From Kiloniellales bacterium (GTDB taxonomy: Bacteria > Pseudomonadota > Alphaproteobacteria > Kiloniellales > JAKSDN01): a stretch of DNA of 64,000 bases. The notes below the pieces were generated by a model. The model did no database searches. It was not told the origin of the DNA and worked only from the letters and a program-made list of their open reading frames with translations. Positions 14,183-50,048 of the stretch are shown piece after piece (within the stretch, counting starts at the first letter, position 1; every line of letters starts with the position of its first letter). Both the position numbers and the translations under genes were made by a program. Location of the stretch: positions 4,077 through 68,076 of the forward strand of contig JANQLT010000105.1 in NCBI GenBank assembly GCA_028280455.1. Reading direction: 5' to 3'.

Positions 14183-14327
14183 GGCAAGGGCTGGTCCGCT
14201 GAGTCTCGCGCCCTTGAAGTCATAGCAGGGCGCCGTAAAGGACCCCTTAAGGGTGATCTCCCAGGGCCGGAAAGGACTGGCGGTGCGCACGCGGGCGCGG
14301 GAAGCTGTCGGCCAGGGAGGCAAAGCC

Positions 14328-15812: not shown

Positions 15813-16886
15813 ATGGTGCGACCGCCGCGTCCGCAGCCCCAAGACCCCTTGGTTCGCGCCAAGGTCGAGGTCGGCAGTGCCGGTGACCTCGCCGAGCACA
15901 CGCTGTCCGTCTGCTTCGAGGAGGCGCTCAACCGGCCCGGCCGCTGCCGCCTGCTGCTGGACGACTGGGGCCCCGACGGCTTCCGCTTCTCCGAGACGCC
16001 GGCCGTCGACTTCGCCGTCCCGCTGGCTCTCGAGCTGAGCGGCGCCAGCGGCAACCTGGAGCCGGTATTCCAAGGCAGGATCTACGCGCTCGGCCGACGC
16101 CTGGAATGGCAGCAGACGCCGACGCTCGCGCTCGAGGCCTTCGATCCCCTGCAGTCCCTCGCCATGACCCGGCGCAGCCGGCATTTCGAGGAGCTGCCGA
16201 TCGCCGATATCCTCGGCCAGGTCGCCGCCGACCACGGCCTGACGGCGTCGGTCGATCTCGATGCCGCGGTGCCGGGCAGCGTGGTGCAGGCGAACGAGAG
16301 CGACCTCGACTTCGTCGTCCGGCTGCTCGCGGCGGAGGACGCCGAGCTCTGGGTCGAGGGCAGCGTCTTGCATGTCGCCCGCCATACGCAGCGGCCCGGC
16401 GCGACCCTGGAGCTACGGAGCGAGCGCGACCTCTTCGACCTGAGCATCGACGCGACGCTCGCCGGCCAGCGCGAGCGGCTCAGCGTCCATGGCTGGGACA
16501 TGCGGGCCAAGGAGGCCGTCGTGGCCTCGGCCGATCCGACGGACCTGGCCGACGAGCTGGACGGCGGCTTGAGCGGCGGCGCGCTGCTCGGCCACGCGGC
16601 GGCCGAGGCGGCGGAAGAGCATCTGGTCCACAGACTCGCGGACGGCCAGGTCTCGGCCGGCGCGCTGGCGAGCGCGCGCTACGCCCGGCTGTCCCGCCGC
16701 TTCGTGACGCTCCGGGCGACCGCGCGCGGCCAGGCCGGCCTGCGGGTCGGCACGAAGATCGATCTGGTCGGCGCCGGCCTGCGCTTCGACGGCCGCTACG
16801 TGATCGCCGCCGTCAGCCACCGGGTCGATCCGGACGAGGGATACCGTTGCGACATCGAAGCCAGACGAAGCGGGGTCGAGCGATGA
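15813..16886 (+). CDS. Phage late control D (gpD/gp27-like hub; VgrG/Afp8 N-terminal part) of a contractile injection system
   Basis: Q.NESDLDF..RL, V.GWD...KE, GLRFDGRYVI..VSHR. Confidence 0.8.
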   Translation: MVRPPRPQPQDPLVRAKVEVGSAGDLAEHTLSVCFEEALNRPGRCRLLLDDWGPDGFRFSETPAVDFAVPLALELSGASGNLEPVFQGRIYALGRRLEWQQTPTLALEAFDPLQSLAMTRRSRHFEELPIADILGQVAADHGLTASVDLDAAVPGSVVQANESDLDFVVRLLAAEDAELWVEGSVLHVARHTQRPGATLELRSERDLFDLSIDATLAGQRERLSVHGWDMRAKEAVVASADPTDLADELDGGLSGGALLGHAAAEAAEEHLVHRLADGQVSAGALASARYARLSRRFVTLRATARGQAGLRVGTKIDLVGAGLRFDGRYVIAAVSHRVDPDEGYRCDIEARRSGVER

Positions 16887-26595: not shown

Positions 26596-27999
26596 TCAGT
26601 CGAAGAGCTGCTCGCCGAAGGTCGGGATGACCGGCGAGGCCTGCTCCGGCGCCTGCACGCCCATGGTGTCGAGGAGGCGGCCGATCAGCGCTAGGATCCG
26701 ATAGGAGGCGAGCTCGACGTTGGTCTGCGAGGTGACGAGCTGGCCCTTGGCCACGAAGAGCTCGTTCTCGGCGTCGAGCACATCCAGCAGCGTCCGCTGC
26801 CCGACCTCGAACTGCTGGCGATAGGCGTCGCGGGTCTCGGTCTGGAAGTCGACGTCGATCGCCGACTCCTCGACCTGGGTCCGGTTGGCCTCGAGGGCGA
26901 ACCAGGAGCGGCGCATCTCTTCCTCGGCCTCGAGCAGGGAGGCGTGGCGGATCGCCTTGCTCTGCTGGACCTGCGACACGGCTTCCTGCCGGGCGGCCGA
27001 GTCGATGCCGCCGCGAAACAGGTTCCAGCGCAGCCGCAGCATGATCTGGTTGTTGAACTCCTCGTCCTCGATGCCGTCGCGGTTGATGTTGTACTCCGAC
27101 TCACCTTCGAGGGTGATCGCCGGATAGAAGGGCACCTCGGAGAGGTCGACCTCGGCCTCGGCCGCGCGAACGTCGGCGTCGAAGATCTTGAAGGTCGGGT
27201 TGTCCGCCCAGACCTGGTCGACGGCGGTGTCGAGATCGGGCGGCAGCACGTTCGGCGGGAAGACCGGCAGCGAGAGGTCGTCCGGGTACTGGCCGACGAC
27301 CCGTGCATAGGAGGACTCGGCGTCGCGCAGCGTGTTGAAGGTCTGCGACAGCGTCGAGCGCGAGCGGGCCAGGCGCGCTTCGGTCTGCGCCACGTCGGCC
27401 TGGCTGCCGACGCCGCCGGAGAGCTGCTCGCGCAGGAAGCCGAGGATCACCTGGTGGACCTGCACGTTCTCTTCGGCCAGGCGGACCAGCTCGCGCTGGC
27501 GCAGCACCTCGAGGTAGGCGCCGATCGCGTCGAGACCGGTGAACTCGGCGTTCTCGAAGACCCGGCGCGCGGCGGAGAGGACGCGGGCCTTCTCGCGCTG
27601 CACCGTGCTGCTGGCCTCGAAGCCGTCGAACACCCGCTGCTGGACGGTGAAGGAGGTCTCGGAGCGTGTCAGGGTCAGGGAGCCGTTGGCGTCGTTGGGG
27701 TTGGAGCGCGTGTTGGTGTCGCGGGTGCGCTCCTTGCCGACGCCGGCGGCCACGTCGAACTGGGGCAGATAAAGACCGCGGGCCTGGCGCAGCTCGTGCT
27801 CGATCGCCTCGCGGTTATGGGAGACGTTGCCGATGTCCGGGCTGTGCGAGATCGCCAGCCGCATCGCATCGACCATTGTCGTGGCCGAGGCCGGCAGGGC
27901 CAAGGCGGCGCCGACGAGCCCGGCGGCGACGATACTGGAGACCTTGGCAGCTCTGCGCCTCACGTCGCGCTCCATGATGAAAACCCCCACCTGCCTCAT
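26596..27999 (-). CDS. TolC-family type I secretion outer-membrane protein (LapE-like)
   Basis: Signal peptide, YLPQFD, QRVFDGF, QFEVGQRTLLDVLDAENELF; exact start uncertain. Confidence 0.9.
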   Translation of the reverse strand: MRQVGVFIMERDVRRRAAKVSSIVAAGLVGAALALPASATTMVDAMRLAISHSPDIGNVSHNREAIEHELRQARGLYLPQFDVAAGVGKERTRDTNTRSNPNDANGSLTLTRSETSFTVQQRVFDGFEASSTVQREKARVLSAARRVFENAEFTGLDAIGAYLEVLRQRELVRLAEENVQVHQVILGFLREQLSGGVGSQADVAQTEARLARSRSTLSQTFNTLRDAESSYARVVGQYPDDLSLPVFPPNVLPPDLDTAVDQVWADNPTFKIFDADVRAAEAEVDLSEVPFYPAITLEGESEYNINRDGIEDEEFNNQIMLRLRWNLFRGGIDSAARQEAVSQVQQSKAIRHASLLEAEEEMRRSWFALEANRTQVEESAIDVDFQTETRDAYRQQFEVGQRTLLDVLDAENELFVAKGQLVTSQTNVELASYRILALIGRLLDTMGVQAPEQASPVIPTFGEQLFD

Positions 28000-28323
28000 C
28001 GCTTAACGTGGTTTACCGGACTTCGCCCCGATTCGCGCCTAGCTTACCCGAGTAGGACCGTCATTAGAATAGGTTATCGGGCAGAGGCGGCGGCGCACGC
28101 CCGCCTTGTCGTGACAAGATCGGGCGCGAAGGAGCGGGTCAAGGCCGGTTGCAACTCGCTGTTCAAAGCACCTGGCGACTATCGGTTCCGGAGCCTTGCT
28201 GAATCCTTAGCGGTCTTCGGGACCGTGACTCGGCCCGCGGACAGGCCGAAAGGCCTTATATCTCCGGTCCTTGGGATGAACAAGCCGGTTCTGGGACCGG
28301 CCCGCTGAGCGCTTCTGGGCCGC

Positions 28324-29142
28324 TCAGCGCTTCTGGGCGACCAGGGTCGGGATCTTCTTGGCGTGGACGTGCGCCCAGCGCGTGGTCTCGTTCATCGAGT
28401 ATTGCGGGATGTAGTGCTTGTAGCGCTCGTGCGAGACGATCAATTCGGAGAGATTATCCAGAATCACAATGCCTTGCGGCTGGTAGACCGCCAGGACCGC
28501 GTGGCCGATGCCGCGGATCTCGTCCCACAGGATGACGATCCGCAGCGCCTCGGCGTCGTAGCCGAGCTGGCGCAGGGCGAAGAACTTGGCGATGGCATAG
28601 TCCTCGCAGTCGCCGGACAGGCGCAGGAACTCGTCCGGAGTCGCCCAGTATTCGTTGACCCCGTAGACCGCGCTGTCGAGTCGGTAGGGCAGCCGGTTGA
28701 AGTACTGGTTAACAATCTTAAGGCGGTCGCGCGGCGCGCCTTTGGCGGCGAGCTGGACGACCTCGCGCCAGGCACGCTGGGCCTCGCTTTGGCAAGCCGA
28801 GGCGTCCTCGGAGCAGCGCAGGTAGCCGGCGCGCTGCTGCTTCATCTTGGCCAGGACCCGCTGCCATTGCGGCAGGCCTTGCAGGGAGCCGGCCTTGAAC
28901 TCGCGCGAGCCGAAGATTGCCGCGGCACCCGGGGGCAGACCGGCGTCGCCGTTGGGCGCGACTCGGGCGGCCTGGGCGCTGCTCACCAAGTCGGCCAGGC
29001 TCTGCGCCGCCGCCGGTGCCGCCATGGTGGCGGCCGCCAGGGCGAGGAGGGCGGCGGCGATGTGCCTGACTGTGAACACTCGGGGCAAGATCGGCTCTCC
29101 GGGGATCTGGAACCGGCGGAAAGCGCCGGCCCGGGGTCGCAT
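28324..29142 (-). CDS. Transglutaminase-like cysteine proteinase (LapG/BTLCP)
   Basis: YWATPDEFL..SGDCEDYAIAKF, HAVL, ILDN (Cys-His-Asp); signal-like segment; true start probably downstream of 29142. Confidence 0.88.
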   Translation of the reverse strand: MRPRAGAFRRFQIPGEPILPRVFTVRHIAAALLALAAATMAAPAAAQSLADLVSSAQAARVAPNGDAGLPPGAAAIFGSREFKAGSLQGLPQWQRVLAKMKQQRAGYLRCSEDASACQSEAQRAWREVVQLAAKGAPRDRLKIVNQYFNRLPYRLDSAVYGVNEYWATPDEFLRLSGDCEDYAIAKFFALRQLGYDAEALRIVILWDEIRGIGHAVLAVYQPQGIVILDNLSELIVSHERYKHYIPQYSMNETTRWAHVHAKKIPTLVAQKR

Positions 29143-29463
29143 GGACCATTCTCCACGGAGGCCTTTAATTTCACGTTCAGAACTATCTAGACTTTGAGAT
29201 AGTTTCGGGCCATTGGCAGGCAGGCCGCGAATTCAGACGATTCGTGGCCCGGCGCGGTGAAGCCGCGAGAAAGCCCCGGATATCAGTGCAGCGCGCTCAT
29301 TCGATTGAATTTTCTTGGATTGCGGCTATGCTAGATTCGAATTCGGGACGTCTCGCCGCAAACCTGCGCTGGCGCGTCGGGCCTTGGTTAGCGAGGATCC
29401 GCGGTTAGGGCATGACCTCGACGGGGTCCAAGACGGACCGGCACTAGGGGGTAATGGATCGCA

Positions 29464-30354
29464 ATGACTGTGAAGCGAATGCTACTCAGCGCCTGCTTCG
29501 CGTTGGCCTTGCCGGCCGGCGCCCAGGCGGGGCCGTTGGATGGCTTTTTGGTCGGGATCTTCGACACCGATAGCGGCTTCGACTTGGAGACGAGCGGCAT
29601 CGTCTTCATGAATACGCTCAACGACGGCTACAAGAACCTGTCGGATTCGCGGACCAGCTCCTTCGATCTGCACGACGGCGAGCACTTCAACGGCAAGGCG
29701 CGGACCGCCGCCCGGCGCTCCATGGTGCCGATGGACGAGGTGACCGACCGCGACCTGAACGAGACCGACAACGCCGCCCTGTCGCAGGCCTATCTCCGGC
29801 TGCGCCGCGCCTTCATCAAGGGCGCCAAGGAAGTGGCGCCGGTCGACACCGCCTATGCCCAGGTCGCCTACGACTGCTGGATCGAGGCGGCGGAAGCCGG
29901 CCGCGACGAGGACGCCGCGCGCTGCCGGCAGGAGTTCAACGACCGCATGGCCCGGGTCGAGGAGCTGGCCAACTACGGGCTGCGCGAGGCCTCGCTGTTC
30001 CCGGGACCGCCGGAGCCGGCCGAGCCCGAGCGCTACATGGTCTACTTCCAGTTCGACAGCACGGTCATGACGCAGGCCGGGCGCGAGGCGCTGGAGCGGG
30101 CGATCCGCGACGCGCTCGCCGACCCCAACACCTCCGTCAAGCTGGTCGGCCATGCCGACACCTCCGGCCCGCGGGGCTACAACCAGGGCCTCTCCGAGCG
30201 CCGCACGAAGGTCGTGCTGCAGGAGATGGAGGCCGCCGGCATCGACATGTCGCGACTCCAGGGCAGCTCGGTCGGCGAGGGCATGCCGCTGGTGCCGACC
30301 GGCGACAATGTCCGCAACCCCTTCAACCGCGTGGTCGAGGTCGATCTGCTGTAA
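29464..30354 (+). CDS. OmpA-family peptidoglycan-binding protein
   Basis: Signal peptide; VYFQFDS, VGHADTSG..GYNQGLSERR, NRVVEV. Confidence 0.88.
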   Translation: MTVKRMLLSACFALALPAGAQAGPLDGFLVGIFDTDSGFDLETSGIVFMNTLNDGYKNLSDSRTSSFDLHDGEHFNGKARTAARRSMVPMDEVTDRDLNETDNAALSQAYLRLRRAFIKGAKEVAPVDTAYAQVAYDCWIEAAEAGRDEDAARCRQEFNDRMARVEELANYGLREASLFPGPPEPAEPERYMVYFQFDSTVMTQAGREALERAIRDALADPNTSVKLVGHADTSGPRGYNQGLSERRTKVVLQEMEAAGIDMSRLQGSSVGEGMPLVPTGDNVRNPFNRVVEVDLL

Positions 30355-30385
30355 GCTGATCGATCGGCCGGCGCGCCGCGAACAG

Positions 30386-30420
30386 AAAAGCCCCTTCGGC
30401 CGCTGCCGGAGGGGCTTTTT
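30386..30420. terminator. Bidirectional-type intrinsic terminator after ompA-like gene
   Basis: AAAAGCCCCTTCGGC-loop-GCCGGAGGGGCTTTTT. Confidence 0.8.
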
Positions 30421-30460
30421 CGTTGCGCTGCGATAGCGGTGCCGCGCGCGCTGCCGAAGG

Positions 30461-30640
30461 GAAGCGAACCGCTCCCTCACCCGGCTCCGGCTAAGCTCAG
30501 CCTTCGGCTTCGCCAAGCCTAGCCGGAGCCGGGTGAGGGGGCGGTTCGCTTCGATGTCGACGGCGACGGCCATCGGCGGCGATCGCCGGAGCGTCACCGG
30601 ACGAGCCGACCGGTGACGAGTCCGCCCAAGCAGGGAACGC
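30461..30640. repeat. Palindromic interspersed element, copy 2 (92-bp hairpin plus 88-nt tail)
   Basis: GAAGCGAACCGCTCCCTCACCCGGCTCCGGCTA...TAGCCGGAGCCGGGTGAGGGGGCGGTTCGCTTC then GATGTCGACGGCGAC...CAAGCAGGGAACGC. Confidence 0.85.
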
Positions 30641-30641
30641 T

Positions 30642-31973
30642 TCAGCGTTCCCGCAGGGCGCGGTCGCGGGCCTTGAGGATCGGCTTGAGCAGGTAGTCGA
30701 GCACCGACTTCTCGCCGGTCAGGATCTCCACGGTCGCGGTCATGCCGGGGATGATCGGCAGATCCTTCTCGGCATGGACCAGGGTGTTGCGGTCCGTGCG
30801 CAGATAGACGTGGTAGAAGCTCTCGCCCTGCTCGTCCTTGATGGTGTCGGCGCTGATGTTCTCCAGCGTCGCCTTGAGCCCGCCGTAGATCGAGAAGTCG
30901 TAGGCCGTGACCTTGATGGTCGACTGCTGGCCGGGGCTCAGGAAGGCGATGTCGGCCGGCCGGATGCGCGCCTCGACGAGCAAGGTGTCGTCGAGCGGCA
31001 CGATCTCGAGGATGTCCTCGGCCGGCCGGATCACGCCGCCGACGGTGTTGTGCATGATCTGCTTCACCGTGCCACGCACCGGCGAGCGCACCTCGGTGCG
31101 GGTCACCGTGTCCTCGCCGGCGAAGAGCGCCTCGGTGACCGACTGCAGCTCGGTCTTGGCCTGGCCCAGCTCGTCGGAGATCTGCGCCCGGTTGGTCGCG
31201 CGCAGCTCCTTGACCCGCTGCTGAGCCTCCTTGGCGCCCTGCTGCAGGCGCGGCACCGAGATCCGCACGGTCTTGATCTGGCCCTCGAGGTCGGCGATCT
31301 CCCGCTCGACGCGCAGCAGGTCGACCTTGGGCATCAGGTTGCGGGCGACCATCGGCTGGGTGATGGCCAGCTCCTCGCGCGCCAGGGCGAGGCTGCGCTG
31401 GAGCTGATCGAGGCGGCTGCGCGCCTCCTGGATCTCCTGGGCCCTTTGGCTCGCCTGGGTCTCGAGCACGGCGACCTGGGCGTCGAGCTGCGCCTTGCGG
31501 TTCTCGTAGAGCAGCGACTCCGAGGCCGCCGCCTGCGGTGCTTCCTCCAGCACGTCGTTGGGGAAGCTCAGCTCTTCGCCGTCGAGCTCCGACTCGAAGC
31601 GGGCGATCTTCGCCAGCAGGCTCAGGTAGCGCGAGCGCATGTCGCGGAAGTCGGCCTGGGCGGAGGTGTTGTCGATGCGGATCAGGATGTCGCCCTGCTC
31701 GACGATGTTGCCCTCGCGCACCAGGATGTCGGCCAGGATGCCACCCTCCAGGTTTTGGATCACCTGGGTCTTGCTCGAGGGGATGATCGTCGCCTCGCCG
31801 CGGGTCACCTCGTCGAGCACGGCGTAGTGGGCCCAGACCAGGAAGCAGATGAAGAACAGCACGCTCATGATGGTGAGCATGTAGGCGAAGCGGTGGCCGC
31901 GCCGCCGGGTGGCGGCCTCGACCTCGGGCATGTAGTCGAGGTCGTCGGCGTCGTAGAGCTTGCCGAGGCTCAT
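30642..31973 (-). CDS. HlyD-family type I secretion periplasmic adaptor (LapC-like)
   Basis: LDEVTRG, QVIQNLEGGI, RSPVRGTV, VTAYDFSIYG, PGMTATVEILTGEKSVLDYLLKP. Confidence 0.92.
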   Translation of the reverse strand: MSLGKLYDADDLDYMPEVEAATRRRGHRFAYMLTIMSVLFFICFLVWAHYAVLDEVTRGEATIIPSSKTQVIQNLEGGILADILVREGNIVEQGDILIRIDNTSAQADFRDMRSRYLSLLAKIARFESELDGEELSFPNDVLEEAPQAAASESLLYENRKAQLDAQVAVLETQASQRAQEIQEARSRLDQLQRSLALAREELAITQPMVARNLMPKVDLLRVEREIADLEGQIKTVRISVPRLQQGAKEAQQRVKELRATNRAQISDELGQAKTELQSVTEALFAGEDTVTRTEVRSPVRGTVKQIMHNTVGGVIRPAEDILEIVPLDDTLLVEARIRPADIAFLSPGQQSTIKVTAYDFSIYGGLKATLENISADTIKDEQGESFYHVYLRTDRNTLVHAEKDLPIIPGMTATVEILTGEKSVLDYLLKPILKARDRALRER

Positions 31974-34462
31974 GCCTGCTCGCCCTGCTTGGCCGGTGCT
32001 TTGGGCGCGCTGCCGCTGCGCACCTGGCCGGACTTCAGCGCCTTGAGGACCTGGTCCTTGGGCCCGTCGGCGACGATGCGGCCGTGGTCGATGACCACCA
32101 GCCGGTCGACGAGGGACAGCAGCGAGCCGCGGTGGGTGACCAGGATCAGGGTCTTGCCCTCGAGGATCTTCTCGAGCCGGCTCTTGAACTGGCCCTCGGT
32201 GGCGTTGTCCATCGAGGAGGTCGGCTCGTCGAGCATCAGGACCGGCGGGTCGTGCAGCAGCGCCCGGGCGATGACGATCGACTGGCGCTGGCCGCCGGAC
32301 AGCGCCATGCCGCGCTCGCCGACCGGCAGGTCGAAGCCCATGGGATGGGACTGCAGGAACTCGGTCACCCCGGCCAGGTCGGCGGCCCGCCGGACCGTCG
32401 CCTCGTCGAGATGGGGCGCGCCGAAGGCGATGTTGTCGCGCACCGAGCCGAAGAAGAGATAGTTGTCCTGGCTGACGTAGCCGATGTTGCGGCGCAGGTC
32501 CGCCGGATCGATCTGCCGCAGGTCGGTGCCGTCCATCAGCACCGCGCCCTCGGCGGGCTCGTAGAGGCCGAGCAGGAGGCGGGCGATGGTGCTCTTGCCG
32601 GAGCCGATGCGGCCGAGGATGCCGACCCGCTCGCCGGGCTCGACCGTGAAGCTGATGCCGGCCAGCGCCTTGTCCTCCTGACCGGGATAGGCGAAGGCGA
32701 CGTTGTGCAGCTCGATCTGGCCGCTGAGGCGTGGGCGGTGCAGGAAGCTCTTGCCCGGCTCGCGCTCGACCGGCGTCTTCATCAAGGAGTCGAGCGCCTT
32801 GAGGGCGACCCGCGACTGCTGCAGGCGTGTCAGCATGGTGGCGACGGCGCCGAGCGGCTGCAGGGCGCGCCCGGTCAGGATGGTCGCGGCGATCAGCGCG
32901 CCCATGGTGATCTCCGCCAGAGCGATCTTGTGGACGCCGTAGACCACGACCGCCACGGTGGTGAGCTGGATCGCCACCTGGGTCAGGGTCGTCGCCAGGC
33001 CGGAAAGCCACTGCGCCTTGGCGGCCGAGCGCGCGGTCATGCCGACGAAGCGCTCCCAGGCCCGCTGCACCCGGCCCTCGGCCGAGATCGCCTTGATGGT
33101 CTCGACCCCCTCGATGGCCTCGAACAGCAGGGCATGCTTCTGGCTCTGCTCGCGGTGGGTCTTCTCGATGACGTTGCGCAGCGGATACTGCAGGATCGCG
33201 CCGACCAGGATCACCAGGGGCACCACGGCCAGCGGGATCAGCGCCACGTCGCCGGCGACCAGCCAGATCACGCCGATGAAGAGGAACACGAAGGGCAGGT
33301 CGACGAAGGCGACCAAGGTGCCCGAGGTGAAGAAGTCGCGCAGCGATTCGAAGTCGCGCAGATTGTTGGCCAGCGCCCCCGTCGAGGGCGGCTTCTTGTC
33401 GAGCCGCATGGCCATGACCTGCTCGAGCAGGCGGCTGGCGATGATCACGTCGGCGTTCTTGCCGGCGGTGTCGACGAAGTAGGTGCGCATGTTGCGCATC
33501 ACGAACTCGAAGACGAAGACGATGCCGACGCCGAGCGCGAGCACCCAGAGCGTCTCCAGCGCGTTGTTCGGCACCACCCGGTCGTAGACGTTCATGATGA
33601 ACAGCGGGCTGGCGATCGCGAACATGTTGATCAGGATCGAGGCCAGCGCGACGTGGTTGTAGATCGGCCAGAACTTGCGGATCGTGCCCCAGAACCAGGC
33701 CTTGGGATCTGCCAGGCGGATCTCCGAGGAGCGGGCGTCGAACTTGTAGTCGGCCCGCAGGAAGATGGCGTAGCCGCTGTAGTCGCTCTGCAGCTCGGCG
33801 ATGTCGCAGCGCTTGGCGCCGCCGCCTTCCGGCATGACGATCTCGGCCGAGCTGTTGTCCGGGTAGCTGACCAGGACGCAGGCGTTGCCGCCCTTGAGCA
33901 GCAGGATGCAGGGCAGGGTCAGCGGCAGGATGTCGGTGATCTTCTTGCGGGCCACCAGCTTGGCGCCCAGGCCGGCGCGGCCGGCGGCCTGGATCGCCAG
34001 CTCCGGCGTGAAGCGCGCGCCGCCGTGGGGCAGGCCGGCCTTGAGGGCCTGCTCCGAGATCGGCTTCTGGATCATGGTCGCGACCAGCGACAGGCAGGAG
34101 ACCAGCGGGTCCTCGAAATCGACCGCCGCCGGGGAGATCTTCCAGCTCTGGGCCTCGCTCTCGCCGCCAGGCGTCGCCTTGAGGGCCTCGGTGATGGCCT
34201 TGGCCGCCGCGGCGGTCACGCTTTCCGCGGGCTGGGGCTCGGTCTCGGGGGCGGCCGGCGGCTCGGCACCCGGCTCAACCCCGGCTTCCACGCTCTCGAG
34301 GCGGCGCAGGGGCTCGGGCTGGCCGGCGGGCTCGCCGGCGGCGGCCTCGGGCGCGGCGCCGTCGGACATGCCGCCGTCGGGCATGCCCGCGTCGGGCGTC
34401 GCCTCGTCGAGCGTGCTGTCGGGCTCCGGCTCTTGCCGTGTCGCCTGCGTGCCGTCCGCCAT
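31970..34462 (-). CDS. Type I secretion permease/ATPase (LapB-like, C39-like N-terminal domain)
   Basis: PLFIMNVYDRVVPN, GRIGSGKST, LSGGQRQ, LDEPTSSMD; acidic N-terminal extension. Confidence 0.93.
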   Translation of the reverse strand: MADGTQATRQEPEPDSTLDEATPDAGMPDGGMSDGAAPEAAAGEPAGQPEPLRRLESVEAGVEPGAEPPAAPETEPQPAESVTAAAAKAITEALKATPGGESEAQSWKISPAAVDFEDPLVSCLSLVATMIQKPISEQALKAGLPHGGARFTPELAIQAAGRAGLGAKLVARKKITDILPLTLPCILLLKGGNACVLVSYPDNSSAEIVMPEGGGAKRCDIAELQSDYSGYAIFLRADYKFDARSSEIRLADPKAWFWGTIRKFWPIYNHVALASILINMFAIASPLFIMNVYDRVVPNNALETLWVLALGVGIVFVFEFVMRNMRTYFVDTAGKNADVIIASRLLEQVMAMRLDKKPPSTGALANNLRDFESLRDFFTSGTLVAFVDLPFVFLFIGVIWLVAGDVALIPLAVVPLVILVGAILQYPLRNVIEKTHREQSQKHALLFEAIEGVETIKAISAEGRVQRAWERFVGMTARSAAKAQWLSGLATTLTQVAIQLTTVAVVVYGVHKIALAEITMGALIAATILTGRALQPLGAVATMLTRLQQSRVALKALDSLMKTPVEREPGKSFLHRPRLSGQIELHNVAFAYPGQEDKALAGISFTVEPGERVGILGRIGSGKSTIARLLLGLYEPAEGAVLMDGTDLRQIDPADLRRNIGYVSQDNYLFFGSVRDNIAFGAPHLDEATVRRAADLAGVTEFLQSHPMGFDLPVGERGMALSGGQRQSIVIARALLHDPPVLMLDEPTSSMDNATEGQFKSRLEKILEGKTLILVTHRGSLLSLVDRLVVIDHGRIVADGPKDQVLKALKSGQVRSGSAPKAPAKQGEQA

Positions 34463-34849
34463 GGGCCTCCTGCATCCCTTGCCCGCTTGGGGGTCGAATT
34501 CTTGAGGTCTAGGCCGTCCGCTCGCCGATTTGCCGAAGGGGGCAGGGCGGTAGGCGCCCGCGATCCCGGCTCGGCCCGGTGGTCCGCTGGGCTTAACCTA
34601 AACTACTTCGCAAAATCTTAACAGGTTCGGCTACTTGGCCGGATTCCTTGGCTTGCGGCTCCAGATGGAGATCGCGGCGCCGGCCGGCAAATCAAGTGAC
34701 GGCGATCACCTCGGCCGGCCTCGCCGCGCCGCTCGTCGGGTCGGCGCCCTTCACAAATGATTATGACTTTTGGCAGAGGATCGGTCTCGCGGGTCAGGCA
34801 GACCCGCGCCCGAAGCCTGTGGTTCGGGCCTCTCTACAGGTAGTAGAGC

Positions 34850-37300
34850 ATGTCACTGGCTGTGCTCCACAATGCGGCGGCGAACGTTGCCAGTCGCTTT
34901 CTGACGGCGAACGACGCCGCGGTCTCCCGCACGGTCGCCAAGCTGTCGGCGGGCCAGCGCGTCCTGGCCGCCCGTGACGACGCCGCCTCCCTCGCCATCG
35001 GATCCCGCCTCCGGGCCGAGGTCGCCTCCCTGGCGCAGGCCTCGATCAACGCCGGCCAGGCCGCCTCGATGCTGCAGGTGGCGGACGGCGCGACGGCGCA
35101 GATCGACGCCGCCATCGTCCGCATGAAGGCCCTGGCGGTGCAGGCCTCCTCGGGGCAGGTCGGCTCTGTCGAGCGGGCCATGCTGGACACCGAGTTCCAG
35201 GCCCTGAAGGCGGAGCTCGACCGCATCGCCAAGGTCACCAACTTCAACGGCCGCAGCCTGCTCGAGGGCGACGTCGAGGACGGCGTGGTCTACACCCTGC
35301 GCAGCAAGACGAGCAGCGGCGTGCTGTTCCTGAACGACCGGGCGCTCGGCCTCGGCGCCCAGTTCAGCCAGGATGACCTCAACGCCGGCCGGGTGACCTA
35401 CCGGCACGACGGCACGACTGCGACCAGCGAGACCCTGATCGTCTCGCTGTCGGACCGCGACGGCAACGCGATCGGCACGCAGACCGGCGAGGTCGACCGC
35501 CTGCAGTTCGAGACCGACGAGTACCACACCTCCACCGGGCTCGATAACATCAAGGCCTCCGCCGCCTATGCCCGCGGCGCGACCGGTGCCGGAGTCACCC
35601 TGGCCGTGATCGACACCGGCATCGACATCGACCACGCCGATTTCCAGAACAACCTCTCCCTCGCGGCCGACATCGTCGACAACACCGTCGAGGGACTGTC
35701 CTTCAGCTTCGCGGCCAACAGCTTCGTGTCCGGCGGCGGCGGCGAGGTCTCCGCGATCCGGGTCTACGACGTCGCCGAGGGCGTCGACCTCTTCGAGGCG
35801 GGCTACGTACCGACGGTGGACATCACCGGCGCGGCGGCGGCCGCGGCGACGGTCACGCTGTCGCTCGGCGGCACGACCTACAGCGGAGCGATCAACCTGG
35901 TGTCCGGCGGGCCGCTGCAGACTCACCTGGTGACCCTGACCGAGACGAACGGCAGCAAGACCATCGACATCGGGCTCGACACCACCATGTCGGCCGGCGC
36001 CATCACCTCGGCCGGCGCGCAGCTCGTGCAGTTCACGACCGCGACCACCGGCGACGGCAACGACGATACGGTGACCCCGGACCAGGGCCACGGCACCCAT
36101 GTGGCCGGCATCGCCGCGGCCGAGAGGAACGGCATCGGCAGCCACGGCGTCGCTTTCGATTCCCGGATCGTCTCGGTCAACGTCGCCGCGGCGGGCGGCG
36201 GGCTCGACTTCAACGACGTGGCCGACGCGATCGACCTGGCGCGGGCCAACGGCGCGGACGTCATCAACATGAGCCTCGGCACCGCCGGCTTCGGCACGCA
36301 CAGCGCTCTGCAGACCGCCATCCAGCGCGCCGTCGAAGCCGGCATCGTGCTGGTCGCCTCGGCCGGCAACGACGCGCTTTCCGATCCCGGCTTCCCCGCC
36401 AACTTCGCCATCCAGTCGGAGGCCGGCGGCATGCTGGTCGCCGTGGTCGCCACCGACGATGGGGATGCGCTCGCCAGCTTCTCCAACCAGGCCGGCGTGG
36501 TGCAGCAGTTCTCGGTCGCCGCGCCCGGCGTCGGCATCATCTCGACGACGAACGACGGCCAGACCGGCAGCAACAGCGGCACCTCCATGGCGGCGCCCAT
36601 GGTCGCGGGCTCGCTGGCCGTCCTGCGCGAGGCCTTCCCGGAGCTGTCCGGCGAGGAGCTGGTCAGCCTGCTGATGACCAGCGCGACGGACCTCGGCACG
36701 GCCGGCATCGACAGCACCTTCGGCCATGGCCTGATCGACCTGCAGGCGGCGACCAATCCGCTGCTGTCGCTGACCATCAACGTCAACGCGACCACGACCG
36801 TGGCGGGCGCGGTCAACCTGGCGCCGGAGACGACGGCGACGCTCGGCAAGAACGTCTTCGACTATACGACCCCCTTCGAGGGCCGCGTGGCGGTGGCCGA
36901 CCGCGCCTTCACCTACCGGGTCGGCACCGGCTCCGCCGCGGCCGACGACATCTCCGTGGCCATCGGCTCGCTGACCGCCAACAGCCTCGGCCTGGACGAC
37001 CTGACCATCGCCGGCGACGCCGGTGCGGCCGCGGCCAACGAGGCCCTGGACGCCGCGCTGTCGCAGGTCGTCTCGGTGCGCTCGGCCATCGGCGCCTCGC
37101 AGAACCGGCTGGAGGTCGCCATCAACAACCTGACCGTGATCGGCGAGAACACCGAGGCGGCGCGCAGCCAGCTCGTCGATCTCGACGTGGCCAGCGAAGT
37201 CGTCCGCTTCACCAGCCGCAGCCTCCTGGCGCAGGCCAGCATCAGCATGCTGGCCCAGGCCAATCAGCAATCCGAGCTTCTGCTGGAGCTGCTCAACTAG
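34850..37300 (+). CDS. Flagellin with an S8 subtilisin-like peptidase and a cadherin/CSPG-like segment in the hypervariable region
   Basis: Flagellin N-terminus (LSAGQRV..ARDDAASLAI, ELDRIA..TNFNG..LL) and C-terminus (RSAIGASQNRL, DLDVASE, MLAQANQ); central VIDTG / HGTHVAG / SAGND / GTSMAAP. Confidence 0.9.
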   Translation: MSLAVLHNAAANVASRFLTANDAAVSRTVAKLSAGQRVLAARDDAASLAIGSRLRAEVASLAQASINAGQAASMLQVADGATAQIDAAIVRMKALAVQASSGQVGSVERAMLDTEFQALKAELDRIAKVTNFNGRSLLEGDVEDGVVYTLRSKTSSGVLFLNDRALGLGAQFSQDDLNAGRVTYRHDGTTATSETLIVSLSDRDGNAIGTQTGEVDRLQFETDEYHTSTGLDNIKASAAYARGATGAGVTLAVIDTGIDIDHADFQNNLSLAADIVDNTVEGLSFSFAANSFVSGGGGEVSAIRVYDVAEGVDLFEAGYVPTVDITGAAAAAATVTLSLGGTTYSGAINLVSGGPLQTHLVTLTETNGSKTIDIGLDTTMSAGAITSAGAQLVQFTTATTGDGNDDTVTPDQGHGTHVAGIAAAERNGIGSHGVAFDSRIVSVNVAAAGGGLDFNDVADAIDLARANGADVINMSLGTAGFGTHSALQTAIQRAVEAGIVLVASAGNDALSDPGFPANFAIQSEAGGMLVAVVATDDGDALASFSNQAGVVQQFSVAAPGVGIISTTNDGQTGSNSGTSMAAPMVAGSLAVLREAFPELSGEELVSLLMTSATDLGTAGIDSTFGHGLIDLQAATNPLLSLTINVNATTTVAGAVNLAPETTATLGKNVFDYTTPFEGRVAVADRAFTYRVGTGSAAADDISVAIGSLTANSLGLDDLTIAGDAGAAAANEALDAALSQVVSVRSAIGASQNRLEVAINNLTVIGENTEAARSQLVDLDVASEVVRFTSRSLLAQASISMLAQANQQSELLLELLN

Positions 37301-37826
37301 CGCCGCTGGCCAGCGCGATCGATCTCTCGATCATCCGGCAGGCCTCGTCGGCTTCGCCCCAGCGCTTGATCTCGACCCACTTGTCGCTCTCCAGGTCCTT
37401 GTAGTGCTGGAAGAAGTGCGAGATCTGGTCGAGCAGGACCTGGGGCAGGTCGCGGTAGGAGCTGACGTTCTTGTAGTAGGGGTGCAGGGCGTCGACCGGC
37501 ACGGCGAGGAACTTTTCGTCCAACCCGGCCTCGTCTTCCATGATCAGGACGCCGATCGGCCGGGCCCGCACCACGCCGCCCGGCACCACCGCCGAGCGCG
37601 CCGCCACCAGCACGTCGGCCGGGTCGCCGTCGTCCGCCAGGGTGTGCGGGATGAAGCCGTAGTTGCAGGGGTAGCGCATCGCCGTGTGCAGGAAGCGGTC
37701 GACGAACATGGCGCCGGAGTCCTTGTCCATCTCGTACTTCACCGGCTCGCCGTGCAGCGGCACCTCGATCACCACGTTGATGTCCCAGGGCGGGTTCTGC
37801 CCCACCGGCACCTTGGAGAGATCCAC
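37293..37826 (-). CDS. ppa: Inorganic pyrophosphatase
   Basis: PVKYEMDK, VDRFL, YPCNYGFIPHTLADDGDPADVL, HFFQHYKDLE; GTG start. Confidence 0.95.
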   Translation of the reverse strand: MDLSKVPVGQNPPWDINVVIEVPLHGEPVKYEMDKDSGAMFVDRFLHTAMRYPCNYGFIPHTLADDGDPADVLVAARSAVVPGGVVRARPIGVLIMEDEAGLDEKFLAVPVDALHPYYKNVSSYRDLPQVLLDQISHFFQHYKDLESDKWVEIKRWGEADEACRMIERSIALASGAS

Positions 37827-37963
37827 GTCGTTTCGCCTCTTTGCCCCGTGAAGGGCGCAGTGGAGCGCGTTTGACCGGGCTCTGCAACCCAGGGGCCCTT
37901 GTCCGCCGCGCGCGCCGGGGTTAACGCTGGGCGGCATCGAAACCTCGAGGGAAGGCTGACGAG

Positions 37964-39504: not shown

Positions 39505-39963
39505 ATGGCCATGGCGACCGCCCCGGGGAAACCAGCTCAACGACCTGACTCGGGCCAGGGGCCGAGCCCCGTGCTGCCCCGGCCGCCCGGCGCCTCGGTG
39601 GTCGGCCTGCCGGGCCCGCGCCCGGGCCGCGCCACGGCGACCGGCGAGGGCGTCCTGGTCATCGGCCGCGAGATCGAGGTCAAGGGCGAGATCGGCTCCT
39701 GCCGCATCCTGGTGGTCGAGGGCCGGCTCGAGGCCTCGGTCGAGGTCGGCTCCCTGGAGCTGGCCCGCTCCGGCGTGGTCGACGGCGAGGCCGAGGTCGA
39801 GCCCGCCGACATCGCCGGCCACTTCGACGGCGAGCTGACGGCACGCGGCGAGCTGCGCCTGCGCCCGACCGCCCGGGTCAAGGGCAAGATCCGCTACGGC
39901 CAGATCGTCATCGAGGCCGGCGGCGAGATCTCCGGCGACGTCGCGGTCCTGCCGAAGAACTGA
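39505..39963 (+). CDS. Bactofilin (polymer-forming cytoskeletal protein)
   Basis: LVIGREIEVKGEI, LVVEG, V.G.I.Y..IVIEAGGEISGDV. Confidence 0.85.
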   Translation: MAMATAPGKPAQRPDSGQGPSPVLPRPPGASVVGLPGPRPGRATATGEGVLVIGREIEVKGEIGSCRILVVEGRLEASVEVGSLELARSGVVDGEAEVEPADIAGHFDGELTARGELRLRPTARVKGKIRYGQIVIEAGGEISGDVAVLPKN

Positions 39964-44450: not shown

Positions 44451-44576
44451 GCAGTCTTTGGGGCGATCTTTGAGGCTGGATCCGGCCGGCCGCTTGCCGC
44501 TCCGGGTCGCAGGCGATAGACCTTGCGGCAAGCCCGAAAGGGGCAGGCGCAAGGCTACCAAGAGGTGTTACCAGGC

Positions 44577-46238
44577 ATGTCGGATTCCGTCGTCGCGTTC
44601 CCCGTCCCGTCGTCGCCAGAGCTCAGCAAGGCGGCCCAGTTCCGCGCCCTGCTGAAGGACCCGGCGCTCGCCTTCATCATGGAGGCGCACAACGGCCTCT
44701 CGGCCAAGATCGCCGAGGAGGCCGGCTTCAAGGGCATCTGGGCCTCAGGCCTGTCGCTCGCCACGGCCATGGGCGTGCGCGACCGCAACGAGGCCTCCTG
44801 GACCCAGGTGATCGACGTCCTGGAGTTCATGTCCGACGCCACCTCGATCCCGATCATGCTCGACGGCGACACCGGCTACGGCGACTTCAACAACTTCCGC
44901 CGGCTGGTGACCAAGCTCTGCCAGCGCGACATCGCCGCGGTCTGCATCGAGGACAAGATCTTCCCCAAGACCAACTCCTTCGTCGCCGGCGACCAGTCCC
45001 TGGCCGACATCGACGAGTTCTGCGGCAAGATCAAGGCCGGCAAGGACAGCCAGAGCGACGAGGACTTCTCGGTCGTTGCGCGCATCGAGGCGCTGATCGC
45101 CGGCTGGGGCCTGGACGAGGCCCTGAAGCGCGCCGAGGCCTATCACGCCGCCGGTGCCGACGCCCTGTTGATCCACTCCAAGAAGAGCGGGCCCGACGAG
45201 ATCCTCGCCTTCGCGCGCGAGTGGGGCAACCGCTGCCCGGTGGTGATCGTGCCGACCACCTACTACGCGACGCCGACCGAGCGCTTCCGCGACGCCGAGA
45301 TCTCGATGGTGATCTGGGCCAACCACAACCTGCGTGCCTCGATCACCGCCATGCGCGAGCTGAGCCAGCGCCTGCAGGCCGAGGAGAGCCTGCTCGGCAT
45401 CGAGGGCAGCGTGGCGCCCCTGGCCGAGGTCTTCGACCTGGCCGGCAACAAGGAGCTGGCCGAGGCGGAGCGCAAGTACATGGCGGCGCGCGCCGAGACC
45501 AAGGCGGTGGTGCTCGCCGCCTCGCGCGGCAGCGCCCTGGAGGCGCTGACCGAGGACCGGCCGAAGTGCATGCTCGACCTGCGCGGCGAGCCGCTGCTGC
45601 GACGCATGGTGCGCGGCTTCAACGACGCCGGCCTGCGCGACGTCACCGTGGTCTGCGGCTACAAGCAGGAGGCGGTCGACCTGCCGAACGTCAAGAAGGT
45701 GGTCAACGAGGCCTACGGCGAGACCGGCGAGCTGGCCTCCTTGGTCTGCGGCCTCGAGGACCTGGAGGGCCCGGCGCTGATCGCCTACGGCGACATCATC
45801 TTCGAGTCCTTCATCCTCGACCGGCTGCTGCAGAGCGAGGCCGACATCGCCCTGGTGGTCGACGCCAAGTGGCGCGAGCACCGCAAGGACGCGCCGAAGC
45901 ACGCGCCCGACCTGGTGATCTGCGACCGGCCCTTCGGCGAGGACCTGCTGCTCGACGAGGCGCCGGTGCTCCTGCAGGGCTTCGAGGGCCTGATCGCCCG
46001 CGACGTCGCCCACGGCGAGTGGATCGGCCTGGCCAAGGTCTCCGCCAAGGGCCTGGCCCTGCTGCGCAAGGCGATCGCCGCCATGGAGGCCGACGGCGGC
46101 GTGGCCCGCGCCGACCTGCCGGACCTCTTCAACCGGCTCATCCGCGACGGCGCCCGCCCCGAGGTGATCTACATCGCCGGCCATTGGCTCGACGTCAACG
46201 ACGCCTTCGACCTGGCCTGGGCCCGCAACGTGCTGTGA
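44577..46238 (+). CDS. aepX: Phosphoenolpyruvate mutase fused to a C-terminal nucleotidyltransferase (PntC-like) domain
   Basis: [16 protein letters not shown], PepM signature [10 protein letters not shown]; C-terminal [22 protein letters not shown]. Confidence 0.92.
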
Positions 46239-48023: not shown

Positions 48024-50048
48024 CTAGAAGTCCGCGATGGTGACCGAGCCCGGGAAGGCAGCCTCGAGGTCGGTGAAGCTTGTGAAGGCCGCCAGGTCGG
48101 CGATGGAGAGGATATCGCCGTTGCTGAAGGTGACCGAGACGTCGGCCGTGCCGGCGTCGCCCAGGCCGAGGTTGCCGACCGTCACGCCGCCCGGGGCGAT
48201 CAGCCCGTCCAGGCTCGCCAGGGAGGGCGTCAGGCTGATCGCCGCGAAGCTGCCGAACAGCAGGGTCTCGGTCGCCGGGTCGAAATCGAGCAGGATGTCG
48301 TGGTCGAACACCGGCGAGCCCGCCGGCAGGCCGAAGACGCCGACGGCGAAGCTGAAAGTGTCCGCGCCGGCGTCCCCGAGCAAGCTATCGGTCCCGCCGT
48401 TGCCGGACAGGATGTCCTCGCCGTCGCCGCCGAACAGCAGCTCGTCGCCGCTGCCGCCGCTCAGGTCGTCGTTGCCGTCCTGACCGAAGAGCGTGCCGCC
48501 GCCGCCGAAGGGAGAGTTCCTCAGGAAGTCGTCGCCGTTGCCGCCCTCGAGCCGGTTGGTCCCCGTTCCGCCGTCGAGGAAGTCGGTGTCGTCGCCACCG
48601 AAGAGCGTGTCGTCGCCGTTGAAGCCGAACAGCCGGTCGACGCCGGCGCGGCCGTCGAGGATCGAATCCCGGCCGGGGATCGGATCGTTGTCGAACAGCA
48701 TATCGAGCACCAGGGGATCGTCGGAGCCGACCAGCGGCGAGGCGATCGTGTCGGAGCGGACGGTTACGGTGATGCTCGAGGCCGTCTCCGCGCCGTCGAC
48801 GAGGTTCTCGACTCTGTAGTCCGAGCCGCCGGTCACGGTCCTGTCGTCGGCCAGGTCGAGGAACGGAAAGAAGAACAGGAAGGTCCCGAAGACGGAAAGG
48901 CCGGCCTCGGCCGGGATCGTGTTGGGCCCCGTCAAGGCGACCGAGAGGTCGAAGAAGGGGTCGGCGACTTCGAAGTCGTCCGCCGGCAGGAACTCGCTGA
49001 AAGAGCTGGTGCCCGGCGTGCCGAAGCCGATGCCCTCGTACTGCAGGATGTTGATGTCGCCGGCCATCGGCGGGCTGTTGATGCCGTCGATCCGGACCTC
49101 GGCGCGGGCCTGGTCTTCGGTCGTGCCGTTCGAGCCGGCGCCGTAGTCGAAGGAAACGACGAGCTGGTCGCCGCTGGTCATCGACCCCAAGGGCACGCGG
49201 TCGACGACTTCGAGGAAGACCTTGCCCTCCGCCAGCACACGGATGTTGAGCGTGCCCCTAAGAAAGGTGAAGGCACTGAACAGCGAGACGTCGACGTTCA
49301 GCACTTCGCCCGGGCCGAGCGGGTTGACGGTCCTACCGGTTTCCGAGATGTCGCCGGGAAGCGCGAGCTCGAGCGAGGCGGGGTCGACCTCGGTGATCGC
49401 CAGGCCGGCCGGGCCTTCGTCGTTTTCGAGCAGATCCGCCATGAAGGGCGCGGCGCGCACGGCGACGTCCGTGGTGCTCAGCGCATCGTCTTCCGCCACG
49501 GCGGGAACCGGCGGTGGCGCGGCAGCCTCCGCCATGACCACGTCGTTGGTCTCGACGAGATTGGGGTCGACGTCGGGCAGGTCGAATCCCGGCAGCAGCG
49601 GAATGCCGATGTCGCCGAGCGGACTGGCGCCGAAGGGGGCGCCGAAGCCGTCCTCGCTGTAGGGCTCGACCGGAATGATCGAGCCGCCGCCGCTCGGCCC
49701 GTCGCCGCCTTGGCCGTTTCCGGCCGCGGTCGCCAGGGCCGTCTCGAGCGAGTGGATCGCGAGCCGGCCGTCGGGGCCGGCGATGCCGTCGCTCCTGTCG
49801 GCGTCGGTGAAGAGGGGAACCAGTCCCTCGAAGGTCAGCGTCGTGCCGTCCGGCAGGACGAGGATGTAGTCGTCGCCGGCGATCCGGCCGGTCAGGACCG
49901 AGGGATCCAGGACCGGCCCCGGCACGCCGTTCTCGTCCGGCAGGCGGATCTGATAGACCAGCCCGCCGCCGGCCGGCACGGCGACCGCGCCGTTGTCGGG
50001 AATAGTGCGGCTTTCGCCGGTCGATGTGACCGTGACGAGGATGGCCAT
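48024..50048 (-). CDS. RTX (Ca-binding) T1SS-secreted surface protein with N-terminal retention-like module and TAAG motif
   Basis: GGxGxD repeats near C-terminus, DILLDFD, no signal peptide; TAAG at aa 107-110 followed by Gly-rich linker. Confidence 0.82.
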   Translation of the reverse strand: MAILVTVTSTGESRTIPDNGAVAVPAGGGLVYQIRLPDENGVPGPVLDPSVLTGRIAGDDYILVLPDGTTLTFEGLVPLFTDADRSDGIAGPDGRLAIHSLETALATAAGNGQGGDGPSGGGSIIPVEPYSEDGFGAPFGASPLGDIGIPLLPGFDLPDVDPNLVETNDVVMAEAAAPPPVPAVAEDDALSTTDVAVRAAPFMADLLENDEGPAGLAITEVDPASLELALPGDISETGRTVNPLGPGEVLNVDVSLFSAFTFLRGTLNIRVLAEGKVFLEVVDRVPLGSMTSGDQLVVSFDYGAGSNGTTEDQARAEVRIDGINSPPMAGDINILQYEGIGFGTPGTSSFSEFLPADDFEVADPFFDLSVALTGPNTIPAEAGLSVFGTFLFFFPFLDLADDRTVTGGSDYRVENLVDGAETASSITVTVRSDTIASPLVGSDDPLVLDMLFDNDPIPGRDSILDGRAGVDRLFGFNGDDTLFGGDDTDFLDGGTGTNRLEGGNGDDFLRNSPFGGGGTLFGQDGNDDLSGGSGDELLFGGDGEDILSGNGGTDSLLGDAGADTFSFAVGVFGLPAGSPVFDHDILLDFDPATETLLFGSFAAISLTPSLASLDGLIAPGGVTVGNLGLGDAGTADVSVTFSNGDILSIADLAAFTSFTDLEAAFPGSVTIADF

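Follow-up and report, generated by a model that had tools for sequence, protein, structure and literature searches.

Can a bacterial flagellin carry a complete serine protease, and if so, would the enzyme be displayed along the filament? This question is raised by a gene in a 64,000-nucleotide stretch of DNA (the window) from a Kiloniellales bacterium (Pseudomonadota; Alphaproteobacteria; assembly GCA_028280455.1, contig JANQLT010000105.1, positions 4,077 to 68,076 of the forward strand). The gene product, here called S8-flagellin, has 816 amino acids (aa); a first reading made from the letters alone (the sequence-only reading) had seen in it intact flagellin ends on both sides of a full subtilisin-type (S8) catalytic set. 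On the basis of our comparisons, the protein appears to be the third of this alphaproteobacterium's flagellin paralogs, with a cadherin-like domain and a propeptide-less subtilase as predicted outer domains. Considering sequence, structure models and analogy with characterised systems together, we regard it as somewhat likely that the flagellar apparatus exports S8-flagellin and that the filament then bears it as an active serine protease.

Architecture of the S8-flagellin

The gene is a single intact open reading frame, and its proportion of G and C at third codon positions (GC3, 0.95) is similar to that of neighbouring genes. A scan with hidden Markov models, as envisaged in the sequence-only reading, matched all three expected Pfam families: Flagellin_N (PF00669) at residues 5-140 (E 2e-30, above the cut-off), Peptidase_S8 (PF00082) at 246-627 (E 2.6e-55, covering profile positions 1-288 of 288) and Flagellin_C (PF00700) at 732-815 (E 1.4e-20). 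A Cadherin_3 domain was also found at 143-204 (E 8e-8). Residues 5-143 match residues 3-143 of the 276-residue filament flagellin 6t17_A, and residues 686-815 match its residues 146-275. With this coverage, the core is a complete minimal flagellin (D0/D1) that carries a 542-aa insert (144-685) at the tip of D1, the usual site of flagellin outer domains. The N- and C-terminal regions of a flagellin are thus present by Pfam, by structure alignment and as helices of the structure model described below, and the claim of intact ends was borne out. The N-terminus is a flagellin D0 helix (model helix 2-100), which agrees with the earlier statement that there is no Sec signal. The parts of the gene are as follows.

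34850..37300, + strand: S8-flagellin gene, single intact open reading frame, 816 aa (ATG at 34850, TAG at 37298-37300)
34463..34849, + strand: 387-bp intergenic 5' region of the gene, common to the divergent ABC-transporter gene of a type I secretion system (T1SS)
34850..35269, + strand: flagellin N-terminal D0/D1 helices, residues 1-140 (Pfam Flagellin_N; 6t17_A alignment; model helices 2-100 and 106-129)
35276..35485, + strand: cadherin-like beta domain, residues 143-212 (Pfam Cadherin_3; model strands 147-211)
35534..36757, + strand: S8 protease domain without propeptide, residues 229-636 (Pfam; alignment to subtilisin BPN'; Foldseek)
35612..35614, + strand: codon GAC of the catalytic Asp255
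35702..36064, + strand: beta-rich insert of ~120 aa between the catalytic Asp and His, residues 285-405 (alignment; model strands 283-387)
36089..36091, + strand: codon CAC of the catalytic His414
36368..36370, + strand: codon AAC of the oxyanion-hole Asn507
36584..36586, + strand: codon TCC of the catalytic Ser579
36758..37015, + strand: beta-strand return segment from the protease to D1, residues 637-722 (model strands 638-705)
37016..37297, + strand: flagellin C-terminal D1/D0 helix, residues 723-816, including a predicted FliS-binding stretch at 774-815 (Pfam Flagellin_C; 6t17_A alignment; model helix 723-815; contacts in a complex model)

The catalytic set had been located correctly from the letters alone. 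No aligned member of the family described below (27 in all) departs from Asp255, His414, Asn507 or Ser579, and the motifs VIDTG, HGTHVAG, SAGND, GTSMAAP and FGHGLIDL, as well as the lead-in EY..STGL..IKA..AYARGATGAGV, are present as quoted. In subtilisin BPN' (chain 1s01_A; E 3.4e-36), the counterpart of the protease part comprises mature residues 6-43 and 60-274, with Asp255 inside the stretch matched to 6-43 and the His, Asn and Ser motif blocks inside the stretch matched to 60-274; about 150 residues of S8-flagellin lie between the equivalents of BPN' residues 43 and 60. The lead-in had been likened to autotransporter-type proteases. This likeness proved non-specific, since the segment aligns to residues 6-43 of BPN' and is therefore an ordinary mature subtilisin N-terminus. 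The insert at residues 285-405 occurs only in a subfamily of 809-816 aa (10 of the 27 aligned members, with a gap in the remainder), and a longer form of it is found in one relative (genome G027).

An AlphaFold2 model was built from an 81-row alignment and reached a mean predicted local distance difference test (pLDDT) value of 88.2 and a predicted template modelling score of 0.71. Long helices at the termini (2-100, 106-129 and 723-815), a beta domain (147-211), the protease and a beta return (638-705) can be recognised in it. Block pLDDT values at Asp255, His414, Asn507 and Ser579 were 93, 92, 97 and 96, respectively, and those of the insert between Asp and His were mostly 84-93. The top match in a Foldseek search was subtilisin 1st3 (E 1.3e-21), with a template modelling (TM) score of 0.92 normalised to the target; 369 PDB matches had E <= 0.001, and subtilisins lead them with TM scores of 0.86-0.92 on the target. 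The protease domain as modelled has the subtilisin alpha/beta fold. The model check suggested earlier was thus answered as to the fold (TM 0.92, pLDDT of 92-97 at the catalytic positions), which is a likeness of fold and not a measure of triad distances. As judged from its sequence, S8-flagellin belongs genuinely to two families, flagellin and S8. The closest non-flagellin S8 domains are 43-51% identical, and Pfam scans of six high-scoring non-flagellin S8 proteins (P0124, P0127, P0128, P0138, P0140 and P0143), made in search of a donor of the insert, revealed no Cadherin_3 plus S8 module.

Distribution and authenticity of the fusion

A search for the same architecture, also proposed in the sequence-only reading, covered 5.8 billion protein clusters (90% identity), of which 8000 candidates were scored and 120 proteins listed. 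Among the proteins listed, 34 clusters besides P0001 carry the fusion (P0002-P0035; 646-816 aa, 42-87% identical); P0036 is a truncated copy, and the proteins from P0037 onward are ordinary flagellins. The family alignment used here contains 27 of the 35 proteins, with P0004, P0010, P0013, P0017, P0020, P0025, P0029 and P0032 omitted as presumed near-duplicates. When 1.84 billion representatives of a 50%-identity clustering were searched, the full span, as judged by match range, was found only in P0001, P0016, P0030 and P0034, together with the fragment P0123. Of 126 other genomes belonging to the order, 2 carry a family member, and of 400 genomes sampled from the class, 1 does. Based on these counts, the family appears to be real but small and sporadic.

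Sources of the family include metagenome-assembled genomes of Kiloniellales and of Alphaproteobacteria, and a RefSeq record of Hypericibacter sp. (Rhodospirillales, Dongiaceae); the known taxonomic range among the proteins listed is Alphaproteobacteria only. Members are labelled in databases as 'S8 family serine peptidase' or 'flagellin-like hook-associated protein FlgL', so the fusion is hidden by annotation. The FlgL identity, which is the Joint Genome Institute (JGI) name of some members, was rejected: the TIGR02550 score was 88.4 bits, below the cut-off of 127.2, and a separate 538-aa FlgL-like gene lies after flgK on contig C240 of the source genome.

Within the family, mean pairwise identity is 0.62 for the N-terminal D0/D1 module (D0/D1-N), 0.50 for the cadherin-like domain (which every one of the 27 aligned members has), 0.57 for the S8 core, 0.34 for the return segment and 0.53 for the C-terminal D1/D0 module (D1/D0-C). 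D0/D1-N is the most conserved module and the return segment the least; the values for the two flagellin modules and the protease indicate that flagellin core and protease are both under constraint. A motif in the return segment, FTYRVGTG, is common to S8-flagellin and canonical flagellin. Cysteine is absent from all 35 family proteins, which are acidic (isoelectric point 4.05-4.7).

An artefact or a dead gene, that is, a chimeric assembly, a pseudogene or an inert protease-like domain, would be the simplest way to dismiss such a protein, and this explanation is effectively refuted. Nothing positive speaks for it; there is only the state of the source assembly (genome G000; 5.94 Mb in 241 contigs, 96.9% complete, 4.93% estimated contamination). 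Against it, the same fusion occurs in the 34 other clusters, which come from independent sources, and in three other genomes, and the gene combines an intact reading frame with host-like GC3 and invariant catalytic residues. In addition, Logan contigs of runs X1-X3, which bear a coral metagenome label and possibly represent the assembly's source sample, cover the gene at 0 differences and run across both domain junctions. Diverged pieces that span the junctions at 35302-35702 and 36704-37173 come from run X4, which belongs to another study. Loose ends among the run contigs are short diverged contigs of other organisms or paralogous S8/flagellin genes (85% likeness). A chimeric assembly, which the sequence-only reading had named as a way in which it could fail, is not supported by these contigs. 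We conclude that the S8-flagellin gene is a genuine conserved flagellin-subtilase fusion and not an assembly chimera.

Two further scans added little to the family. Searching genome contigs with P0001 gave at least 80 loci, nearly all of them plain S8 proteases or plain flagellins, with no new family locus; L021, seemingly a full-length family locus, consists of two tandem 375-aa flagellins. Metagenome contigs were scanned with a junction-only alignment, which gave at least 591 stretches, of which 50 were confirmed. L092 was the sole family member among the matches listed, in a scan that effectively used one generic S8 pattern and not a family-specific one.

Flagellar display, soluble release or type I secretion

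If S8-flagellin travels by the flagellar route, its carriers should possess such a route. The source genome contains the flagellar export and assembly genes FlhA, two FliS, FliD (999 aa), FlgK, FlgL and a FlgJ-like gene, and two canonical flagellins, fla1 (777 aa) and fla2 (776 aa), in one cluster.

Contig C240:25992-48000 (loci L005 and L006): late flagellar cluster with FlgJ-like, FlgK, FlgL, two tetratricopeptide repeat (TPR)-methyltransferases, fla1, FliD, FliS, fla2, a second FliS and FlhA

The outer regions of fla1 and fla2 (~550 aa) have no Pfam match. Since both flagellins are about as large as S8-flagellin, subunits near 800 aa are already accommodated, and we infer that the filament would have room for the protease domain. 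Identity of the S8-flagellin core to fla1 is 64% over the N-terminal 140 aa and 52% over the C-terminal 95 aa; the corresponding identities between fla1 and fla2 are 72% and 73%. The two TPR-methyltransferase frames (763 and 1028 aa) lie between flgL and the first flagellin on C240 and are possible flagellin-modifying enzymes. With regard to relatives that carry a family member, G253 (99% complete) possesses a canonical flagellin as well as FlhA and FliS. In G069 (93% complete) FlhA was found, the sole Flagellin_N match is its S8-flagellin, and the genome search found no other flagellin and no FliS; the canonical flagellin/FliS cluster of this genome may simply be unassembled.

A complex model of FliS (1-125) with the tail of S8-flagellin (723-816) scored 0.80, the best of 3 controls reaching 0.01. 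At least 72% of contacts were common to the runs, partner pLDDT was at least 63, and the modelled contacts lie at residues 774-815. Of 80 solved complexes 58 reach the mark applied to such models, as do 2 of 110 mismatched pairs; these counts are only rough here, as a custom alignment was used. This is a textbook pair for which solved FliS-flagellin complexes exist, so the pass may reflect only likeness to them and is not proof.

In the course of events that we favour, FliS would hold the cysteine-free, acidic S8-flagellin unfolded through its C-terminal D0 helix, and the flagellar type III apparatus would export it down the filament channel. At the tip the protein would fold, and its D0/D1 helices would polymerise with the two canonical giant flagellins; the Asp-His-Ser protease domains would then be active on the filament surface. 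The sequence-only reading had proposed both flagellar type III export and display along the filament. Its export part fits the complete core, the flagellar genes, the FliS-tail model and the lack of cysteine. Display itself we infer, and co-assembly with the canonical flagellins is weakened by the location and the promoter of the gene.

Several observations weigh against display on the filament. First, flagellar neighbours of the S8-flagellin gene were found in 0 of 5 loci (G000, G069, G253, G027 and L092). Second, we calculated a D0/D1 tree of 120 rows (34 S8-flagellins and 86 canonical flagellins; the N-terminally truncated P0035 was dropped), in which 33 of 34 S8-flagellin cores fall into one clade (support of 96 in the Shimodaira-Hasegawa-like approximate likelihood ratio test) and do not group with the canonical flagellins of their own genomes. 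Such a separate clade is compatible with a diverged function. Third, sigma-54 sites with 10/11 matches each are located upstream of fla1 and fla2, at -120 and -154, respectively, and the background, read from one strand over 1.48 Mb of the genome, is 5 sites of at least 10/11. The canonical flagellin gene of G253 has a 9/11 site at -170. A sigma-54 site of at least 9/11 was thus present upstream of 3/3 canonical flagellin genes and of 0/5 S8-flagellin genes, which places S8-flagellin outside the promoter class of the canonical flagellins. Finally, the protease has no propeptide according to Pfam and the BPN' alignment. Classical subtilisins require a propeptide for folding, so folding of the protease at the filament tip is unproven.

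The 5' region of the gene offers few other signals. A Shine-Dalgarno-like AGGTAG lies 8-13 nt 5' of the ATG and is kept in G069; even at a threshold of 8/11, no sigma-54-like site could be observed in 34463..34849. A sigma-28-type site (TAAA-N14-16-GCCGATAA, at least 9/12) is absent upstream of S8-flagellin in four genomes and upstream of fla1 and fla2, and L092 has a lone bare 9/12 match at -240. Neither a sigma-70-type site nor an intrinsic terminator was detected within 34300-37500. A CtrA-box-like reading of the 5' region, made by eye, was unconvincing and was dropped. Having its own, non-sigma-54 promoter, the gene is probably regulated separately, and S8-flagellin probably serves as a minor subunit or as one expressed conditionally. 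In the D0/D1 tree at least two state changes are needed, of which well-supported branches force only one; the tree would fit a single old fusion followed by a separate lineage.

Much of this evidence bears equally on the main rival explanation, in which the flagellin termini act only as a type III export/chaperone tag and S8-flagellin is released as a soluble extracellular subtilase. Such a protein would resemble FlaC, the flagellin-like secreted protein of Campylobacter. The separate promoter class without the sigma-54 site of structural flagellins, the position outside flagellar clusters in 5/5 loci and the separate D0/D1 clade all favour release, and the FliS-tail model fits export as well as it fits assembly. 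On the other hand, the whole D0/D1 core has been kept, with no deletions relative to the minimal filament flagellin, and the conservation of D0/D1-N, the highest of all modules (0.62), is more than an export tag alone would need. Moreover, the core is only slightly further from fla1 than fla2 is, and the characterised precedent, flagellinolysin, is filament-bound in the part of the report drawn on here (PMC5595980). We therefore consider soluble release unlikely, although it is the explanation to be taken most seriously besides display.

The immediate neighbourhood suggests another partner, a Lap-like T1SS encoded at 26599-34462, with no giant adhesin gene alongside. This set and the other candidate components of a type I pathway are listed below.

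26599-27999, - strand: TolC-like outer membrane efflux protein
28327-29142, - strand: BTLCP (LapG-like) cysteine protease
29464-30351, + strand: OmpA-family protein
30645-31979, - strand: HlyD-type protein
31970-34462, - strand: ABC transporter with a long N-terminal extension, divergent from the S8-flagellin gene
48024-50048, - strand: repeats-in-toxin (RTX) protein, 674 aa, HemolysinCabind E 2.8e-10, ~14 kb from the type I system
Contig C239:1-~9200 of G000 (L149): open frame of at least 3067 aa from the contig edge, with a Cadherin_3 domain

One might therefore suppose that S8-flagellin is a cargo or functional partner of this system, either exported by it or cutting its adhesin, with the flagellin ends as a relic. 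The two genes are divergent and adjacent and have the 387-bp intergenic region in common, and G069, a relative of the same family, shows the same synteny, with an identical T1SS arrangement including the downstream genes and an additional PAS/HD-domain protein. The cadherin-like domain is of a type repeated in giant adhesins; 30 stretches of P0122 (4060 aa), for example, match it. T1SS cargo is typically acidic and cysteine-free, as S8-flagellin is. However, the adjacency holds in only 2 of 5 loci (G000 and G069), which are close kin, alike also downstream, and hence not independent. G253 has metabolic neighbours only, within 10 kb per side; upstream of S8-flagellin, G027 carries a tRNA-Gln and a lipid-synthase-like gene, and L092 has unrelated genes downstream, with no T1SS genes in the visible flanks of either. 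Pfam revealed no RTX repeats (HemolysinCabind) in S8-flagellin; with linkage to the transporter genes in two close kin only, it lacks the features of a type I (RTX/Lap-type) substrate, and its flagellin ends are strongly conserved. More ordinary cargo is also at hand: the RTX protein at 48024-50048 is a conventional candidate, and the C239 frame is probably a giant adhesin with a domain type that it has in common with S8-flagellin. Taken together, a role as T1SS cargo or partner is quite improbable. The likelihood that remains beside filament display, soluble release, T1SS cargo and artefact goes to some other explanation, none of those named.

Some further observations were made around these genes. 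In G027 (contig C33; L091), the tRNA-Gln (2495-2568) is directly upstream of the S8-flagellin gene, whose 5' region contains three 24-nt repeats in tandem (2645-2716). These features could point to an integration site and to an array that binds a regulator. In the window, a convergent inorganic pyrophosphatase gene (37293-37937, - strand) overlaps the final 8 bases of the S8-flagellin gene (37293-37300), and a bactofilin gene is found at 39505-39963 (+ strand). An AAA ATPase (12644-14329, - strand), a polysaccharide deacetylase-like gene (14253-15257, + strand) and a Phage_GPD/VgrG-like baseplate-hub gene (15813-16886, + strand) make up a locus that may be a contractile-injection or phage-tail-like remnant. 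Finally, a fusion of phosphoenolpyruvate (PEP) mutase and nucleotidyltransferase at 44523-46238 (+ strand) suggests phosphonate biosynthesis.

Relation to known protease-bearing filaments

The enzymatic flagella known so far are all of one catalytic class. They are flagellinolysins, which carry a zinc metallopeptidase and assemble into proteolytically active filaments according to the sections of the report considered here (Eckhard 2017, PMC5595980). As described in the portions of two papers used for comparison (PMC5595980 and PMC7643111), flagellinolysins (FlaMP; Clostridium haemolyticum and Hylemonella gracilis, among others) are built like S8-flagellin, with Flagellin_N, a protease in the hypervariable region and Flagellin_C. 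Both types occur beside ordinary structural flagellins in the genome and have no separate secretion signal, and a proteolytic filament is the proposed outcome for S8-flagellin too. They differ in catalytic class: S8-flagellin is an Asp-His-Ser subtilase, whereas flagellinolysin is an HExxH gluzincin (M9-like). Pfam found no metallopeptidase domain in S8-flagellin, only S8, Cadherin_3 and the flagellin ends, and the cadherin-like domain is an extra that flagellinolysin does not have. Lacking the HExxH gluzincin domain, S8-flagellin is not a member of that family, although it would resemble flagellinolysin in its working. The comparison drawn in the sequence-only reading, a protease in the hypervariable region with another catalytic class, therefore holds.

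Three other systems share part of this design. Subtilisin BPN' and Savinase (MEROPS S8A; 1s01 and 1st3) have the full fold and the same order of triad and oxyanion Asn; compared with them, S8-flagellin lacks the propeptide, carries the ~150-residue insert and has its domain embedded in a flagellin. The giant flagellins (10.1101/221366; PDB 9au6, 793 residues) have ~800 aa and a large outer region, like S8-flagellin; no enzymatic domain is reported for them in the part of that source considered, whereas the outer mass of S8-flagellin is a recognisable enzyme. The Vpr serine-peptidase fibrils of Bacillus, as presented in the excerpts used of PMC10657474, are an S8-family protease in the form of an extracellular active filament. 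Unlike what is proposed for S8-flagellin, Vpr self-polymerises, with no flagellin fusion and no flagellar apparatus.

As far as the consulted sections of the literature go, S8 is outside the ten commonest hypervariable-region domains of flagellins in PMC5595980, whose full list has 61 domains. Within the same limits, the 2024 survey of flagellin outer-domain folds (PMC11532411) reports M61-like peptidase, pectate-lyase-like and WD40 clusters and names no subtilase, and the corresponding parts of PMC7643111 and PMC7018530 mention no subtilase flagellin. No published description of an S8-flagellin was found in full-text literature searches, which did not include the supplementary 61-domain list of PMC5595980; this is in line with the sequence-only reading, which knew of none. 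S8-flagellin probably represents a second and hitherto undescribed chemical class of flagella that bear a protease.

If the serine-protease version is real, fusion of flagellin with an enzyme would be a recurrent evolutionary solution. It would also pose a folding puzzle, in that a propeptide-less subtilase would fold after unfolded transit of the narrow flagellar channel, and it would provide a natural scaffold on which a robust industrial enzyme class is displayed on a self-assembling nanofilament. The idea is directly testable, as Hypericibacter has cultured species. In the fullest form of the proposal, to which we give a little less than an even chance, these bacteria would build, on demand and under a regulator other than the sigma-54 programme, filaments bearing up to thousands of active subtilisin-type proteases, a second and independently evolved class of enzymatic flagellum. 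In Kiloniellales this might be coupled to Lap-type adhesin secretion, so that the swimming organelle would double as a tool for remodelling surfaces or host matrix.

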